Below, piece after piece: positions 19,226 through 25,527 of a stretch of DNA of 25,851 bases. Positions within the stretch are counted from its first letter, which is position 1, and each line of letters starts with the position of its first letter. The translations under genes and the position numbers were made by a program. The notes under the pieces are model-generated. The model was not told the origin of the DNA, searched no databases, and saw only the letters and a program-made list of their open reading frames with translations. This DNA is from a virus, in the UHGV virus genome UHGV-0280754. One strand, 5' to 3'.

Positions 19226-19555
19226 TTAGTCATCCATGGATGGATTGAGCTTATCTCGTGTTGATGTGGCAATTTTCCCAACATTTTTCAACCAAGATTT
19301 TAAGAAGGATATGTCGTCCTTAATATCATGAATATCCTCATTCTTTATACGATCAACCTTATCCTCTAAGCTCTCTATAGAACGCTCAATGCTAGACAGA
19401 GAGATTTTTAAGTCCCCTTGCTCACGTTCCAGTGAGGATTTGAGAGCACAATATTCGTTTTCTAGAATTCCTATTTTTTTTGTTAGAGAGTGCATTCGAT
19501 ACTCATACACCAAACCAGAAACGACTAATGCAGCCAACAGAAACCATTCAAGCAC
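19226..19555 (-). CDS. Small membrane-anchored coiled-coil protein (109 aa), GTG start; positional analogue of sieA
   Basis: Minus-strand ORF with AAGGAGG 5 nt upstream of GTG; N-terminal hydrophobic helix LEWFLLAALVVSGLVY then heptad-rich acidic coiled coil; its stop abuts the gp16-like stop with zero intergenic bases. Confidence 0.6.
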   Translation of the reverse strand: MLEWFLLAALVVSGLVYEYRMHSLTKKIGILENEYCALKSSLEREQGDLKISLSSIERSIESLEDKVDRIKNEDIHDIKDDISFLKSWLKNVGKIATSTRDKLNPSMDD

Positions 19556-19929
19556 ACCAACCTCCTTAGTTTTGCTCAGGATACCAGATGATACTTTATT
19601 GGTGGAGTGGTGTGTGAAAACGTGTCAACGACAAACCATCCACAACTTGGACGAATGATTTAGCAAAAAGTGCTATTTTTGGTGTTTGGTGTCATAGAAA
19701 AGTGAATAGCTCACTTTTCAACATTGCATGAAACTTGCAGGAAATGTGACATTACCTTATAGGTAACTTCGGCGAAAATGCAGTAAATGTGAAACGTAAT
19801 GGTTTAAACATGTCGCTAAAGTGGTTGTAAGTTAGCCTCCGAAGGATTGCTGATAGCTTTGTTATAGTATTAAATGACATTTGACATAGTTGGATACTTA
19901 GCTGTGGCTATCAAGATGGAGGTGTGTTC

Positions 19930-20373
19930 ATGCTTACTTGTTTTGATGTCGCCGACTACTTCCTGTCGCGGTGTGACGAGGATAGCGGTGACGCAATCTC
20001 TAATTTAAAATTACAAAAGCTTGTTTACTATGCTCAGGGTTTTTCATTGGCGTTGCTTGGCGAGCCTCTTTTTCAGAATAAGATGGAAGCTTGGATGCAT
20101 GGCCCTGTTGTCCCTGAGCTTTATCACCGTTATAAACAATATGGTAATGGTGCTATCCCTTCTCCAGAGTCTTTTGATGCTGAAAAATTCAGCGAAGAAC
20201 AGTTAGAGCTATTAGAAGAAGTCTGGGATGTTTTTGGGCAATTTTCTGCCTGGAAACTGAGGAACATGACACACGAAGAGTCACCATGGAGATCAAACTA
20301 TATTGAGGGTGTTGGTGGTTCTGAAATTAGTTCTAAGGAGATGGCAGAGTACTTTGCAACTCGGATTAACTAA
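19930..20373 (+). CDS. Panacea (DUF4065, SocA/GepA-like) domain protein (147 aa)
   Basis: GGAGGT 6 nt upstream of ATG 19930 (ORF-track entry starts at GTG 19924); motifs NLKLQKLVYYAQGF and EAWMHGPVVPELY are what I remember as hallmarks of the Panacea/COG3600 family; AT-rich relative to flanks. Confidence 0.75.
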   Translation: MLTCFDVADYFLSRCDEDSGDAISNLKLQKLVYYAQGFSLALLGEPLFQNKMEAWMHGPVVPELYHRYKQYGNGAIPSPESFDAEKFSEEQLELLEEVWDVFGQFSAWKLRNMTHEESPWRSNYIEGVGGSEISSKEMAEYFATRIN

Positions 20374-20377
20374 CGAG

Positions 20378-20797
20378 ATGGCAAGAAAATCTAAAAGGAT
20401 TATCCCCCCTGCTGAATCTACAGGTAAGTTAAAGTTAGGGCCGCAGTCAGGGGGGAATTCAGATCAAAAGAAACCGAAATTTTCATTCTGTTACATCCAA
20501 AGCTCTCACTGCATAACGAAATGCCAAAAAGATGAGAAAGCTGGCTTAGCTGATAAATTATACAGATTAAGTCAACTAACATGGGCAGATATTAAGCAGC
20601 AAGGTAGGCATAAGCTTGGATTTGAGAAGATTGCAAGGGGTGCAATTAAAGCAGGTATCCCCAGTCATATAACGGAAGACGTAGATCATTTCTTGGCTTT
20701 TAGATTTGATGATTTGAAAGCCATGGTTGGTTATCGTCTTGGATCGACATTTTTTGTTATATGGCTTGATAGAGAGTTCAACCTATACAAGCACTAA
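20378..20797 (+). CDS. Unrecognised 139-aa protein translationally coupled to the Panacea gene (candidate toxin/effector partner)
   Basis: ATG 4 nt after the Panacea stop; basic Pro/Gly-rich N-terminus (MARKSKRIIPPAESTGKLKLGPQSGG), Cys/His cluster (CYIQSSHCITKC), C-terminal GYRLGSTFFVIWLDREFNLYKH; the ORF-track start at 20303 is an out-of-frame overlap extension and was not used. Confidence 0.6.
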   Translation: MARKSKRIIPPAESTGKLKLGPQSGGNSDQKKPKFSFCYIQSSHCITKCQKDEKAGLADKLYRLSQLTWADIKQQGRHKLGFEKIARGAIKAGIPSHITEDVDHFLAFRFDDLKAMVGYRLGSTFFVIWLDREFNLYKH

Positions 20798-20825
20798 TAA
20801 AACCCACCGTCAGGTGGGTTTTTTG
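20797..20825. terminator. Bidirectional intrinsic terminator between the convergent partner gene and mnt
   Basis: A-run (20797-20800), stem AACCCACC (20801-20808) / GGTGGGTT (20813-20820), loop GTCA, T-run (20821-20825); the mnt stop codon lies inside the hairpin. Confidence 0.65.
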
Positions 20826-21061
20826 TACAAATCCTTCAGCGTATCAAACACCATCTTCCTAACAAGTTCGGACTGCTCATCAGCGATGCGTTCTGCATCG
20901 TCTCGATAGCCTGCAATCGGTGATGGTTTTGATAGCGCATCCTGAACGATTTGTAATAACTCTGAGTTCATTGACCTTCCGTTAGCCTCTGCTCTTAATT
21001 TCAATTTTTCTCTTACTTCCAAAGGCATACGGAAGTTAAAGTGCGGATCGTCTCTAGCCAT
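20810..21061 (-). CDS. mnt: Mnt repressor (ribbon-helix-helix, 83 aa)
   Basis: Product MARDDPHFNFRMPLEVREKLKLRAEANGRSMNSELLQIVQDALSKPSP... matches P22 Mnt nearly residue for residue as I recall it; same length. Confidence 0.92.
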   Translation of the reverse strand: MARDDPHFNFRMPLEVREKLKLRAEANGRSMNSELLQIVQDALSKPSPIAGYRDDAERIADEQSELVRKMVFDTLKDLYKKPT

Positions 21062-21084
21062 GCCATCACTCCAAGTTAGTATCT

Positions 21085-21342
21085 CTAACTTTCGTCTTTA
21101 TTGTTGCTATACATGCATTTCAACTTCTCAACATCATGTTCAAGATCTATCAATCGTGATGCTATAGTTGCAAGGTCTAGTGCTTGAATGTGTTTATTTT
21201 TTTCGGTCCATGCTTCAAGTGCCGCGACCATCTCAGCATTTAATGAACGAGAATTAGCCTCAGCCAGTTCAATAAGACGTTCCTTTATCTCTACAGGAAG
21301 CCTCAGATTCACTTGAGGGTTTTTGTACTTACGATCAGACAT
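21085..21342 (-). CDS. Second Mnt/Arc-family ribbon-helix-helix protein with C-terminal coiled coil (85 aa from ATG 21342; GTG 21348 also possible)
   Basis: RHH signature NLRLPVEIKERLIELAEANSRSLNAEMVAAL; AGGA 7 nt upstream of the ATG on the minus strand; directly upstream of and co-oriented with mnt (23-bp gap). Confidence 0.75.
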   Translation of the reverse strand: MSDRKYKNPQVNLRLPVEIKERLIELAEANSRSLNAEMVAALEAWTEKNKHIQALDLATIASRLIDLEHDVEKLKCMYSNNKDES

Positions 21343-21388
21343 CGGCACATCCTGAATAATTTTTTACCACAGGATATGTAGGTATCTA

Positions 21389-21417
21389 TTGACTATCAAT
21401 GCGTACCTAAATACTAT
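21389..21417 (+). promoter_or_regulatory. Pant-like rightward promoter: -35 TTGACT (21389-21394), 17-bp spacer, -10 TACTAT (21412-21417)
   Basis: Near-consensus hexamers with optimal spacing about 30 bp upstream of arc; overlapping palindrome TGTATG-N7-CATACA (21417-21435) and direct repeats ATGCGTACC (21399-21407, 21420-21428). Confidence 0.55.
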
Positions 21418-21447
21418 GTATGCGTACCACATACAACGGAGGATGCA

Positions 21448-21588
21448 ATGAAGGTAAAAACACTGCGTATGCCAGAGAAGTTAGAAAAAATCCTTGAAGA
21501 GAAAGCAAAGGAAGAGTGTCGCTCATTTAGTGCAGAAGTAATTAAACGGGTGATGGACAGCCTGAAGAGAGAGGGGATAACGGTATGA
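21448..21588 (+). CDS. arc: Arc-like ribbon-helix-helix repressor (46 aa)
   Basis: Hand translation MKVKTLRMPEKLEKILEEKAKEECRSFSAEVIKRVMDSLKREGITV aligns with P22 Arc (…PREVLDLVRKVAEENGRSVNSEIYQRVMESFKKEGRIGA, from memory); GGAGG 5 nt upstream; below the ORF-track size cut-off. Confidence 0.8.
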   Translation: MKVKTLRMPEKLEKILEEKAKEECRSFSAEVIKRVMDSLKREGITV

Positions 21589-21788
21589 GTAAAGAATGTT
21601 GTTTCTGCGGCATTAGCGAATCAGACGCTGATCAAACATACATTTACTCTAAAGAAACAGGTCGGATGCTGTGTAGTGACTGCGTGTTGGACATCATAAG
21701 ATACAAGCATCTTGGATGTTCTGCCAGCATTAGCAATATAGGTGAAGTATATGAAGGGAAAGATATAACTGATAGAGCAGAAAGTTGA
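21585..21788 (+). CDS. Small Cys-rich protein (67 aa), putative zinc-ribbon, between arc and ant
   Basis: ATGA overlap with arc stop; Cys pattern CCFCG ... CSDC; no family recognised. Confidence 0.5.
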   Translation: MSKECCFCGISESDADQTYIYSKETGRMLCSDCVLDIIRYKHLGCSASISNIGEVYEGKDITDRAES

Positions 21789-21851
21789 AGCCCCAACTGC
21801 GGTAACAGTCAGGGCTTCGGTATCGTAAAACCACGCATAGGAATTAACGAC
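21778..21851 (-). ncRNA. Putative sar-like small antisense RNA covering the ant ribosome-binding site and start codon
   Basis: Minus-strand promoter inside the ant 5' end: -35 TTGATA (complement of 21881-21886), 17-bp spacer, -10 TATACT (complement of 21858-21863); about 70 nt downstream on that strand lies a hairpin (21787-21818) followed by a U-rich tract; arrangement matches P22 sar (from memory). Confidence 0.4.
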
Positions 21852-22775
21852 ATGAAAAGTATAGCAACAGCAGTATCTACTATCAATGTACCATTCCACG
21901 GCGCAGAGCTTTATGTTGTCAATCACAACGGTGAGCCGTACACCCCAATGAAACCTATCGTTGAGGGAATGGGTATGGATTGGGCTTCACAGTTTACAAA
22001 GTTAAAACAAAGATTTGCTAAAGGTATTGTGGAAATCGCAATACCTTCAGTTGGCGGTGTGCAGAACATGATTTGCCTTGCTTTACGTAAACTTAATGGC
22101 TGGTTGCAAACCATCAGTCCTAACAAAGTCCGCCCTGAAATCCGCGACAATGTAATCCAGTATCAAGAAGAGTGTGACGATGTGCTATACGAGTACTGGA
22201 CTAAAGGCCATGTAGTTAACCCACGCAAAGCTAAAAAGGCGTTGCCGGGTAAAATCACCACTGAGCAGCAGGAAGCCATTAAACAACTCGTCATGAGTCG
22301 CGGTCAGTCTCTGCCAAAAGAAAAACAGGCTAAGGCGATGATCACCATGTGGTCGTCACTGAAATCCCATTTTGGATGTTCGTACAAAGAAATCAGTGAG
22401 GAGCAGTTTACCGAAGCACTGTCACTTGCAGCTCGAGTTCCACTTGAAGGTGAGTTCATTGGCAAACAAGAGAAGAAAACCGACGAGCTTTCTGCAAAAG
22501 AAGCAAACAGCCTTGTATGGTTATGGGATTATGCCAACCGCTCACAGGCATTATTCCGCGAACTGTATCCGGCGCTAAAACAAATTCAATCGAACTATTC
22601 CGGCAGATGCTACGACTACGGTCATGAATTCTCGTATGTTATCGGAATGGCGAGAGATGTTTTAATTAATCACACACGAGATGTTGATATCAATGAGCCA
22701 GACGGACCAACGAATCTTTCCGCATGGATGAGACTTAAGAATAAAGAATTACCTCCTTCAGTACATAACTACTGA
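21852..22775 (+). CDS. ant: Antirepressor Ant (307 aa)
   Basis: Position after arc and before the tailspike as in the P22 immI region; size close to P22 Ant; N-terminal region resembles the P22 antirepressor N-terminal domain from memory. Confidence 0.8.
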   Translation: MKSIATAVSTINVPFHGAELYVVNHNGEPYTPMKPIVEGMGMDWASQFTKLKQRFAKGIVEIAIPSVGGVQNMICLALRKLNGWLQTISPNKVRPEIRDNVIQYQEECDDVLYEYWTKGHVVNPRKAKKALPGKITTEQQEAIKQLVMSRGQSLPKEKQAKAMITMWSSLKSHFGCSYKEISEEQFTEALSLAARVPLEGEFIGKQEKKTDELSAKEANSLVWLWDYANRSQALFRELYPALKQIQSNYSGRCYDYGHEFSYVIGMARDVLINHTRDVDINEPDGPTNLSAWMRLKNKELPPSVHNY

Positions 22776-22875: not shown

Positions 22876-25527
22876 ATGACAGACATTACAGCCAATGTGA
22901 TTGTATCGATGCCTTCTCAACTCTTCACTATGGCGCGTTCTTTTAAAGCCGTAGCCAATGGCGAAATTTATATCGGGAAAATTGACACTGACCCGGTAAA
23001 TCCTGAAAACCGGGTTCAGGTTTATGTAGAGAACGAAGACGGCTCTCGCGTTCCTGTTTCGCAACCAATCATCATTAACGCTGCTGGATATCCGGTATAT
23101 AACGGACAGATTGCCAAATTCGTAACCGTGCAAGGCCATTCTATGGCTGTTTACGATGCTTATGGGGCGCAGCAGTTCTATTTTCCAAACATTCTGAAAT
23201 ATGATCCTGATCAGTTTAAACAAGAACTAGAGAATAAGTTTAACAATGGTTCAACTCCATCAATTATAAATTATAAGTACGGTCTTCCAGAAGAAGTAGA
23301 CGGAGCAACACAAAGGACGCTACAGGATAAACTTGATGACCATGTAAATGTTCGCGATTTTGGTGCAAAAGGGGATGGCATTACTGACGATACAGACGCA
23401 ATAACAAATGCCATCATTTACTGCGCATCTAACGGAAAACGCCTGAAGTGGGATTCTGGTGTGTATTTGATTAGCCGCATAAAATGCGGCGGGGATAATT
23501 ATAACTATGACTGGGTAGCTGATGGCAAGGTTGTCTTAAAGTCAACCGCAAAAGAGCCTCTTGGTCCAAACTGGATTGATGATTATTTCATAAGACTCGA
23601 AGGTGGAGATGCCACGCCAATTGACTATAATTCAACAATAAATCCTGGTGACACATCAATATCAATTAACTCAGCATATTCTGTTGATGCAGGCGATATA
23701 ATTATGATTCATGGCAATCGCTTAATTCAGACAGATAATAGAGGACAGGCTTGTGAAGGTGAAATGCATGTTGTTACTGCTTTTGATAATGCAACAAAAA
23801 AAGCGGAGATATCAGGTGCATTTTATTTTTTCTACTCTGCGAGCAATGATTACTCAACGACCGTAACAGCATCTGTATCCGGAGGTGAATTCTCATTTGG
23901 TAATGATGCAACATTAACAAAACAATACAATCAGGTAAAAGTAACAGGTGTCACCGGAGCTAACGCCGGAATATCAAGATACATAACTCATTGGGATTAC
24001 GACACTAAAACAGCAAAATTTGAATATGCTCAGGGACCATTCCCGTTTAAACCATCTGTTGGAGACGTGTTTAAAATCACAAGAAAGGCAAATATATATA
24101 AAAGAAAACCATGCTACGGCAGAATTGTCGGTGATTTCAATTTTGAAAGACCTGTCACGCAGAACGCATCTCCTGGTGATTTGGGGTTCCGTGGTCTTGT
24201 GATAGATGGCGCTGTTGATATGCATATAGAAGGAATAAAACTAATCGGCTTTTCAGAAACTGGAATTTTTCTTGAGTCATGCTACAGAACGAAAATAATA
24301 GAACCATATATTGAATACTCAAACCGTGCATATGATTTAACAAACGGCACTGGTTATGGTGTTGAAATATACAATAGCAGCTATTGCACAGTCGTGGATA
24401 TGATAGCATTTGCTTGCAGGAGGGGGCTTGATGTAAGCGGGACTCAAATGGTATCACTGTATAATAACATTATAAATCCAACGATGATTGGTGGTGGAAC
24501 TGCATATGATGGAGTTAAATTTTTCCCTGATGGCGATACAAGAAATTCATGTTGCGGTGGACACGGCCCATCATACGAAACAACTTTTACAGGCGGAAAT
24601 TCAGTCAATTTGTATTATGCTGGTGTAATACGCGGATTAAATGAAGTGTATGATGGAATGAACGCCAGGGGATTTAGCGGCCCGGCTCCTTTTTTTGTAA
24701 GATATAGTGGTGGTGGGTTCACGATTCAGAACTGTAATTATATTGATGGTTTTACTGAGATGTCTTTGCCATACAACTTGAGGTACAAACCTGTGAATGC
24801 AACTCAACGTAATCACAGACCTCTTGTTTTTATTGAAACAACTCTGGCACAGACAGACAGAAACTCTTACTATAAAGAACTTCCTGTTGTTATTAAGAAT
24901 AATACCGCAAGGACTGTTCTCAAGGGCTTTTTACGTTTTGAGGTTAATGATGGCCTCACCCCTCTAATCCAAAATATTTATTTTGGTGGTAATTTATGCA
25001 TGGCGAACCCAGAAACATCAGATTCTGTATCAGGGCAAACAGAGGCAGTAATGGTTTATTCATCTGTTCCTGGTGCAATAATTGTTCGAAATTTCCATGA
25101 TCTTGGCGGTAACAGAATTGTTCCTGTTGGAGCAGGATACAGATACTGCGGTATGTTCAACACGCCAGATGGAATAGCAGGAACAATAGTTCAACCAGAC
25201 GGAAAATATCTAATAACACTTGAAGCAAACAAATCTACAAGTATCCTTGTTGGTGGATACGTCCCATGTGTTCGCCTTGATATGCACGACATACTTGATA
25301 TTCATGGGGTAATTGCAGTTGGTGTTCTTATTCATCGTGGTGAGGCAATTGATTTTTCTCCTTTAAAAGAAATTAATAAGCAAAATGTTGTATTGAAAAC
25401 CGGAGTTCTTTCAGATAATGATGGTGATGAAAATAACTTAAATATTTCGTTTGACTTTGCAACCATATATTTAAGCAACAAGATGCCAAATAAGATTCAA
25501 CTATCTATTGAAGTATCAGGAGTGTAA
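22876..25527 (+). CDS. Tailspike protein (883 aa): P22-type N-terminal head-binding domain plus right-handed beta-helix (pectate-lyase-fold) receptor-binding/glycanase body
   Basis: Residues 1-~110 (MTDITANVIVSMPSQLFTMARSFKAVANGEIYIGKIDTDPVNPEN...VTVQGHSMAVYDAYG...LKYDPDQ) match the P22 gp9 N-terminal domain from memory; downstream NVRDFGAKGDGITDDTDAITNAI is the classic beta-helix glycosidase motif; GGAG upstream. Confidence 0.92.
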   Translation: MTDITANVIVSMPSQLFTMARSFKAVANGEIYIGKIDTDPVNPENRVQVYVENEDGSRVPVSQPIIINAAGYPVYNGQIAKFVTVQGHSMAVYDAYGAQQFYFPNILKYDPDQFKQELENKFNNGSTPSIINYKYGLPEEVDGATQRTLQDKLDDHVNVRDFGAKGDGITDDTDAITNAIIYCASNGKRLKWDSGVYLISRIKCGGDNYNYDWVADGKVVLKSTAKEPLGPNWIDDYFIRLEGGDATPIDYNSTINPGDTSISINSAYSVDAGDIIMIHGNRLIQTDNRGQACEGEMHVVTAFDNATKKAEISGAFYFFYSASNDYSTTVTASVSGGEFSFGNDATLTKQYNQVKVTGVTGANAGISRYITHWDYDTKTAKFEYAQGPFPFKPSVGDVFKITRKANIYKRKPCYGRIVGDFNFERPVTQNASPGDLGFRGLVIDGAVDMHIEGIKLIGFSETGIFLESCYRTKIIEPYIEYSNRAYDLTNGTGYGVEIYNSSYCTVVDMIAFACRRGLDVSGTQMVSLYNNIINPTMIGGGTAYDGVKFFPDGDTRNSCCGGHGPSYETTFTGGNSVNLYYAGVIRGLNEVYDGMNARGFSGPAPFFVRYSGGGFTIQNCNYIDGFTEMSLPYNLRYKPVNATQRNHRPLVFIETTLAQTDRNSYYKELPVVIKNNTARTVLKGFLRFEVNDGLTPLIQNIYFGGNLCMANPETSDSVSGQTEAVMVYSSVPGAIIVRNFHDLGGNRIVPVGAGYRYCGMFNTPDGIAGTIVQPDGKYLITLEANKSTSILVGGYVPCVRLDMHDILDIHGVIAVGVLIHRGEAIDFSPLKEINKQNVVLKTGVLSDNDGDENNLNISFDFATIYLSNKMPNKIQLSIEVSGV

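Follow-up and report, generated by a model that had tools for sequence, protein, structure and literature searches.

Phage P22 has a single mnt gene, the product of which keeps the antirepressor gene ant off in the lysogen (PMC7380047, PMC11016777). The virus genome UHGV-0280754, analysed here as one stretch of 25,851 nucleotides (nt; hereafter the window), has two Mnt-family genes in tandem: a ribbon-helix-helix (RHH) gene at positions 21085-21342, which we call RHH2, and just downstream on the same strand a P22-type mnt (20810-21061). The locus raises the question of which of the two repressors belongs to the control region of ant, and what the other one does. The sequence-only reading had taken the downstream gene for the near-canonical mnt, and had proposed that RHH2 is part of a duplicated or layered circuit over ant or a regulator recruited to control the neighbouring accessory cassette. 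Our analysis points to the opposite assignment: RHH2 would be the resident repressor, and the P22-type Mnt an orphan that acts in trans on other phages. We give this overall reading, as a joint figure for both parts, a probability of roughly 60%.

Loci that carry RHH2 by itself suggest to which gene the control region belongs. In Salmonella phage SEN22, a gene 84% identical to RHH2 is the sole mnt, and it adjoins an almost identical control region and a short arc gene; Escherichia coli loci L013-L017 likewise have RHH2 alone with the same control region and short arc. We surveyed 5,426 complete E. coli genomes, with a coverage threshold of 80% or more of the query. RHH2 with its control region was found in 147 genomes (141 at the coverage threshold), P22-type mnt in 323 (157 at the threshold), and the tandem pair in 45, compared with about 96 loci that have a single RHH2. 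Only 1 of 50,697 phage records held the pair. Whether P22-like phages routinely carry it, a point raised by the sequence-only reading, therefore has a divided answer: these frequencies are too low for a routine feature, yet the pair does recur, and phage CUS-3 has it annotated.

The same arrangement extends beyond E. coli and Salmonella. In phages of Klebsiella, Morganella and Xenorhabdus with other tail types, an RHH2-family gene lies divergent from a short arc, and ant follows beyond arc except in one Klebsiella locus (L018), which has a short arc and no recognisable ant. In the window and most homologous loci, from five genera, an RHH2-type gene is divergent from arc-ant across a common promoter/operator region. 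Because the core of that region stays conserved across genera while the flanking genes diverge, RHH2, the control region and the short arc appear to form one co-inherited module, a separate type of immI region that is widespread among phages of Enterobacterales. RHH2 is probably the resident Mnt-type repressor of this module and the P22-type mnt the add-on, so the roles given to the two genes by the sequence-only reading would be reversed: the upstream gene, which stands alone in SEN22 and L013-L017, is the likely cognate repressor, and the operator of the supposedly canonical mnt is missing.

The divergent control region of the RHH2-type immI spans 105 bp (21343-21447). Across genera, 51-58 of the 62 bases of its core (21376-21437) match, whereas the genes flanking the core are 54-81% identical in nucleotide sequence and their synonymous sites are saturated. 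A Pant-like promoter on the plus strand (TTGACT-17-TACTAT, 21389-21417), proposed by consensus match only and conserved in position, points toward arc and ant. On the minus strand, a candidate promoter for the RHH2-mnt operon (TTGATA-17-TATCCT, 21371-21399) is a weak 9/12 consensus match, the -35 element of which abuts the Pant -35. Conserved over these divergent promoters is a candidate operator array (21378-21434) of three boxes with a GTAyC core in exact 21-bp phase: GTAGGTATC at 21378-21386 and ATGCGTACC at both 21399-21407 and 21420-21428. The 9-mer ATGCGTACC occurs twice in 25.8 kb, both times in the ant control region, with 0.10 occurrences expected, and in Xenorhabdus all three boxes have this sequence. 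The third box lies inside a 17-bp palindrome, GTATGCGTACCACATAC (21418-21434), of which E. coli TW10590 has a perfect version, and a larger imperfect palindrome (21375-21413) is centred at the -35 hexamers. An attempt to assign the boxes one by one to RHH2 or the short Arc by covariation failed: there is almost no variation in either the boxes or the RHH2 head, and little in the arc heads (V/P-T/S-R).

RHH2 is a genuine gene and no chance open reading frame (ORF), as the sequence-only reading had supposed in describing a second, Mnt-type RHH protein. It runs on the minus strand from an ATG at 21342 to a TAG at 21085, giving an Arc/Mnt-family protein of 85 amino acids (aa) with an Arc-like head, PQVNLRLP, and a predicted long C-terminal helix. 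The ORF listing extends it to a GTG at 21348, but we place the start at the ATG because 30 homologues begin MS[DE]R.YK. The protein matches the Pfam Arc family PF03869 (40.1 bits, cutoff 20.4, E 3e-10) and, over its full length, phrog_795 (E 2e-25), the PHROG that also contains P22 Mnt; in a search of the PDB, Mnt (1mnt) is the best match and Arc the next. When the profile of the RHH2 family is compared with that of P22-type Mnt, the two align across 74 columns, the C-terminal part included, at a probability of 97.6%. The ratio of nonsynonymous to synonymous substitution rates (dN/dS) against homologues is 0-0.11, and both RHH2 and the P22-type mnt appear from such ratios to be under purifying selection. 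Family members were found in a large protein database in Escherichia, Salmonella, Klebsiella, Citrobacter, Yersinia, Morganella, Serratia, Xenorhabdus and Shewanella, and the head R.YK[NH]PQVNLRLP is invariant in the family alignment. Neither repressor matched a PADLOC model.

An AlphaFold2 model of RHH2, built on a 31-sequence alignment (mean confidence score, pLDDT, 81), has the RHH helices at residues 16-28 and 33-47 and a single long helix at 56-82. The N-terminal extended segment is unassigned as a strand in this monomer, as expected if the strand pairs only in the dimer. Between the RHH helices is the motif A-N-S-R-S-L-N, corresponding to the family turn G/N-R-S-x-N. The 27-residue C-terminal helix aligns with the C-terminus of Mnt and has heptad-like hydrophobic residues at spacings of 3-4 (L57, I60, L64, L67, V71, L74), which makes a C-terminal coiled coil plausible in the model. 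No match to the Mnt C-terminal tetramerisation model PF11423 was found with RHH2 at E values up to 0.1. As judged from these comparisons, RHH2 is Mnt-like in architecture and falls outside strict membership of the P22 Mnt type.

RHH2 combines features of both P22 repressors. Like P22 Mnt (PDB 1MNT), it has an N-terminal RHH domain followed by a predicted C-terminal helix and is divergent from arc-ant across a common control region; however, the two proteins are only about 31-36% identical, the head of P22 Mnt is PHFNFRMP, and the P22 Mnt operator AGGTCCACGGTGGACCT is unrelated to the operator-like boxes associated with RHH2 (GTAC core, 21-bp phase). The head itself is almost identical to that of P22 Arc (PDB 1ARR/1PAR), in which the beta-strand reads PQFNLRWP, and to that of the Arc-F10V variant, PQVNLRWP (1BAZ, the best Arc match). 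RHH2 differs from P22 Arc in its length of 85 aa, its extra C-terminal helix and its position and orientation, which are those of mnt, and the Arc operator is absent. The triad Gln-Asn-Arg contacts bases in the Arc-operator complex, and RHH2 has the same triad. Knight and Sauer are said to have engineered hybrids with an Arc head and an Mnt body, and RHH2 resembles these.

Comparison with P22 gives the boundaries of the mosaic. By blastn, homology to P22 in this part of the window is confined to 20801-21080 (mnt and a hairpin, 88%) and 21781-21867 (sar and the start of ant, 83%), and the interior between these two segments matches SEN22. On the mnt side, the homology ends just past the mnt ribosome-binding site, at the point where P22 has the Pant -35 and Pmnt. 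A cassette of about 700 bp (approximately 21081-21780), comprising RHH2, the control region, the short arc and a 67-aa ORF, thus occupies the position of the 231-bp promoter/operator/arc segment of P22. The P22-type mnt is left with a ribosome-binding site only. Relative to the P22-type immI circuit, the window keeps sar at the 5' end of ant and lacks the Mnt and Arc operators between mnt and arc.

Searches for these operators agree with this picture. Allowing up to 3 mismatches, neither the 17-bp P22 Mnt operator nor the P22 Arc operator has a match in the window, and at the same threshold the Mnt operator is missing from the whole CUS-3 genome (40.2 kb), from 40 kb around the identical locus of STEC346 and from 80 loci in IMG/VR. 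In positive controls, a perfect Mnt operator was found beside the single P22-type mnt of P22 itself and of E. coli loci L005 and L006. These two prophages also keep the Arc operator and a P22-type arc, and so have a complete P22-type immI; they are the two that we examined among about 110 further E. coli genomes with a P22-type mnt (at least 80% coverage) and no tandem. Given that complete P22-type immI modules are present in E. coli, a Mnt that acts in trans would find targets within this one host species. Within its own genome, the P22-type mnt of the window appears to be an orphan, with nothing to bind in cis.

The orphan gene is itself well preserved. It lies on the minus strand (20810-21061) and encodes 83 aa that are 90% identical to P22 Mnt, with N-terminal DNA-reading residues ARDDPHFNFRMP that are the same as in P22. 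It matches PF03869 at 96 bits and PF11423 at 63.3 bits (cutoff 20.9). The 23-bp gap that the sequence-only reading had reported holds up: the spacer between the two mnt genes, at 21062-21084, contains the native ribosome-binding site of the P22-type mnt, GGAGTG (CACTCC on the plus strand, 21067-21072). At the thresholds of our scans, we found no sigma-70-like site on the minus strand between RHH2 and mnt, and no operator there either. Because there is no promoter-like site between them, the two genes are likely co-transcribed, in line with the earlier suggestion, and any expression of mnt, which has no promoter of its own, would depend on transcripts that start at the RHH2 promoter and read through.

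At its 3' end, mnt overlaps a GC-rich hairpin, CCCACC-gtca-GGTGGG (20803-20818), which we read directly from the sequence. The hairpin covers the mnt stop codon, is flanked by A and T runs and is also kept in P22 and SEN22. It looks like a two-way terminator, common to mnt and to the convergent plus-strand cassette. A terminator scan missed it, probably because the flanking A/T runs lengthen the stem. A weak Rfam match to the Salmonella small RNA STnc420 (26 bits, cutoff 70; minus strand, 20792-20846) covers the 3' end of mnt and the hairpin, and is probably just the terminator hairpin.

We ruled out a recent tandem duplication as the origin of the pair. The identity of the two proteins, 36%, is limited to the RHH domain, and their lineages are separate, so the description of RHH2 as a duplicated repressor does not stand. 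RHH2-family genes are stacked with more than one kind of partner. Among 80 RHH2-family viral loci on IMG/VR contigs, 14 have a second Mnt-like gene just downstream, with four reading heads and four junctions: a P22-type partner after a 23-nt gap in 9 loci, a third type in 2 loci, where the longest ORF overlaps RHH2 by 26 nt, a partner with the head EPQINIRVS after a gap of 47 nt in 1 locus, and one with the head APFGLRMP after a gap of 98 nt in 2 loci. In E. coli LI60C3 (L012, 1266-1758), RHH2 is followed, with a 17-nt overlap, by an Mnt of the third type, with the head APYSVRMP (MKTKVRDIAPYSVRMP...).

This third type is the resident Mnt of an arc-ant module within the tail genes of O157:H7 lambdoid prophages and is found in about 319 complete E. 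coli genomes, mostly O157:H7. One such locus, in E. coli O157:H7 strain 2149 (L105, 2456-4111), has the third-type mnt-arc-ant among siphophage tail genes, with a control region rich in CACAGTG/GTGATA repeats. We found no 14-mer common to the third-type control region and the LI60C3 locus. In both cases examined, the distal Mnt appears from these comparisons to be a bona fide resident repressor of an antirepressor module that circulates in the same host species, stacked without its operator. Elsewhere, the position just behind the RHH2-family mnt holds defence-like cargo in the same orientation: genes for a GmrSD_N protein and a HEPN protein in Morganella (L020-L022, 2766-4636) and a gene for a 157-aa protein in Klebsiella (L018-L019, 2737-3210). 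This suggests that the mnt operon is a general slot for cargo expressed in the lysogen.

The junction of the window (...NNKDES-stop, 23 bp, mnt) is kept beside four accessory cassettes, namely Panacea-type in the window, YafO-type in CUS-3/UTI89, PIN-type and orf59a-like, and it is also kept with differing ant and tailspike genes. In two E. coli loci, ant is broken by insertion sequences (IS2 and IS66) and both Mnt genes and the short arc are intact (L009, strain MFDS1019527, 2521-3641; L011, strain TW14425, 2268-3363). The downstream mnt is intact in every copy, that is, in 6 variants from E. coli and CUS-3 and in 9 IMG/VR loci, with dN/dS of 0.04-0.21. Its reading-head His, Asn and Arg are constant in all copies, and the first 13 residues change only by D4N (L031) and M12I (L026).

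We propose a mechanism that accommodates both genes. RHH2 would repress the local Pant by way of the conserved boxes, with the short Arc and sar contributing as they do in P22, and the P22-type mnt would be made in the lysogen as the second gene of the RHH2 operon. The conserved boxes and palindromes over the promoter occur together with the invariant RHH2 head, which is indirect evidence for such binding. In classical P22 genetics, the Mnt of a prophage also silences the ant of a superinfecting P22, and the Ant of an invader can inactivate the resident repressor. The P22-type Mnt made by a phage such as that of the window may act similarly in trans, shutting Pant of incoming or co-resident phages with a P22-type immI, and silencing of foreign ant would protect the resident prophage from induction by a foreign antirepressor. 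Inactivation of a repressor by the antirepressor of a different prophage is known (PMC7380047, PMC11016777). Whereas in a P22 lysogen one Mnt serves both in cis and in trans, the separate Mnt of foreign specificity proposed here would serve in trans only. Phages L and ST64T resemble the window in that they keep a Mnt-family gene for which they have no cognate ant, arc being absent as well. In those two phages, however, no other mnt accompanies the orphan, which has a promoter region to itself, whereas the orphan of the window lies behind what would be a functional resident mnt. More speculatively, enterobacterial temperate phages may collect Mnt genes of foreign specificity, operator-less in their own genome, downstream of their own mnt, as a stackable 'anti-antirepressor' immunity at the level of transcription, which would silence the antirepressor promoters of other immI types found in the same host and so keep an invader from inducing the resident prophage. 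This tentative generalisation, if it held, would describe something different from repressor immunity and from exclusion systems.

The chief alternative is that the P22-type mnt is a passenger, left over from a swap of the control region and arc, read through without current function, and that the tandem is a step toward deletion or a chimera. In its favour, the mosaic boundaries coincide exactly with the limits of the segment that holds the control region and arc in P22; single alleles with the C-terminal tail of the neighbouring type suggest deletions between tandem copies; and the tandem state is in the minority (45 versus about 96 single RHH2 loci). However, the gene is intact in all copies, at dN/dS of 0.04-0.21, and the His, Asn and Arg of the reading head are conserved in each. 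The pair is also kept across four flanking cassettes and where ant is disrupted, and stacking has arisen independently at least four times with differing partners. On balance we consider a functionless passenger possible but rather unlikely. It is less probable still that the two Mnt-type proteins share the local control region as a binding target and together tune ant and the promoter of their operon, which is close to the layered circuit of the sequence-only reading. Both would come from one transcript that adjoins the control region, and the 21375-21413 palindrome is similar in its outer bases (TAGGT...ACCTA) to the P22 Mnt operator, but the resemblance amounts to five bases at the wrong spacing (21 bp rather than 9 bp) and the full 17-bp operator is unmatched at up to 3 mismatches. 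The control core is, moreover, essentially the same in loci with RHH2 alone, so that nothing in it is specific to the tandem; we regard such layered repression as improbable.

The sequence-only reading had also suggested that a repressor was recruited to control the neighbouring accessory cassette. Physical proximity speaks for one of the two controlling the Panacea-domain gene and the 139-aa ORF at 19924-20797, or another phage or host promoter, as does the fact that RHH proteins often autoregulate cassettes of the toxin-antitoxin type. However, neither the 25.8-kb window nor the 40.2-kb CUS-3 genome has a Mnt operator, a scan of the window found the ATGCGTACC boxes to be confined to the ant control region, and in other loci a YafO-type, PIN-type or orf59a-like cassette stands beside the same pair. 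With the pair beside at least four unrelated cassettes, this suggestion is very unlikely to be right. Nor do we give much credence to mixed oligomers, in which the C-terminal helices would join the two proteins into a hybrid repressor bridging two operator types. Both proteins have a long C-terminal helix, and their profiles align through the helix region, but the C-terminal sequences are dissimilar and differ by 6 residues in length, RHH2 is alone in most loci, and there is no second operator type in cis; this is the least credible of the explanations considered.

Several observations weigh against RHH2 as the resident repressor with a trans-acting P22-type Mnt, which we nevertheless prefer. 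The 45 tandem genomes include many K1/ST95-like strains that are related by clonal descent. Promoter-like sites are no more and no less numerous than in shuffled sequence, and the leftward promoter is a weak consensus match. RHH2 shares the Gln-Asn-Arg triad of Arc, yet the conserved boxes are unlike the Arc operator. Among tandem variants, the synonymous rate dS reaches 0.56 for the downstream mnt, compared with 0.02 for RHH2 (window against CUS-3), and much of this synonymous divergence probably entered the downstream gene through recombination with P22-type alleles present as single copies, in which case its low dN/dS may reflect selection elsewhere. Some single RHH2 alleles are chimeric: that of SEN22 ends in the P22-type tail ...KKPT, and those of B4103 and EC28 end in the ...TLKTMYGKDAK of the third type. 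Tandem copies apparently recombine into chimeras, and since the locus recombines often, tandem states could be transient intermediates.

The pair itself is known from CUS-3 (GenBank CP000711.1), the record of which annotates both genes as mnt. CUS-3 and the UTI89-type prophages have the same pair, 23-bp junction and control region as the window (DNA 97% identical, RHH2 98.8% identical), and CUS-3 differs in its YafO-type accessory cassette, its tailspike and the C-terminus of its mnt. STEC346 and XJ23PTE1 are 100% identical to the window over 20810-21450. Villafane et al. (2008) described and drew the 'ant morons' of CUS-3 and UTI-1 as six-gene types and stated that CUS-3 apparently lacks arc (PMC2629481); contrary to this, we find the 46-aa arc in CUS-3, where it is now annotated by PGAP. 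Full-text literature searches returned, among the accessible texts, no analysis of the function or specificity of the two mnt genes. What is new here is the reversal of roles, the operator-less state of the P22-type mnt, the near-invariant operator core of RHH2 across genera and the recurrent stacking.

Antirepressors let one phage wake the prophage of another, and guarding against foreign antirepressors has been little explored. If the second Mnt does act in trans, immI regions also carry stackable determinants of cross-immunity, which would account for orphan mnt genes like those of phages L and ST64T; prophage-encoded defence would gain a simple new class. The annotation also changes: the upstream gene would be the working Mnt of its module, and CUS-3-type phages do have arc. 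With its near-invariant operator core, the RHH2 family would represent a second, widespread immI specificity type, and it offers a natural protein with an Arc head and a Mnt body for studies of specificity.

The window as a whole represents the late genes of a phage or prophage of the P22-like (Lederbergvirus) type. In its right part, ejection-protein genes extend to 19225 and are followed by an accessory cassette (19226-20797), the two RHH genes, the control region, arc, a Cys-rich ORF, ant and the tailspike gene. The short arc (21448-21588, plus strand; 46 aa; Pfam Arc, 37 bits, E 3e-9) is of a non-P22 type and is part of the RHH2 cassette. The Cys-rich ORF (21585-21788, plus strand; 67 aa; phrog_7150), with the pattern CxxC...CxxC, closes the non-P22 insert. 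It begins within the stop codon of arc (ATGA) and lies in the Pant operon ahead of sar and ant. The motif CCFCG...CSDC makes a zinc ribbon likely, and PGAP leaves the ORF unannotated in E50 and STEC346; LI60C3 and B4103 have other small ORFs in this slot (57 and 80 aa). The P22-type sar antisense RNA (21783-21850, minus strand; Rfam RF00262, 85.7 bits, cutoff 43) lies at the 5' end of ant, and ant itself (21852-22775, plus strand; P22_AR_N and P22_AR_C domains) is the gene under the control of the circuit.

In the accessory cassette, the plus-strand segment 19924-20797 encodes a SocA/Panacea-domain protein (149 aa, Pfam E 8e-25) and then a 139-aa protein (phrog_8366) with a weak PADLOC match to NsnC (E 4e-6). 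The two resemble a toxin-antitoxin or defence pair of the Panacea type and converge on the hairpin that they have in common with mnt. On the minus strand, a 109-aa ORF (19226-19555, phrog_5962) directly follows the ejection-protein gene, which is the position of hkcB in CUS-3 and HK620; it has weak matches only, to Pfam families of coiled-coil type. The tailspike gene (22876-25527, plus strand; 883 aa) is unlike the 2,100-nt tailspike gene of STEC346, placing a recombination boundary downstream of ant and before the tailspike gene. P22 Mnt and related proteins bear the name 'partition protein ATPase' in RefSeq entries for phages (e.g. NC_002371.2), by way of phrog_795, a label that is ill-suited to an 83-aa RHH repressor and that is spreading through phage records.

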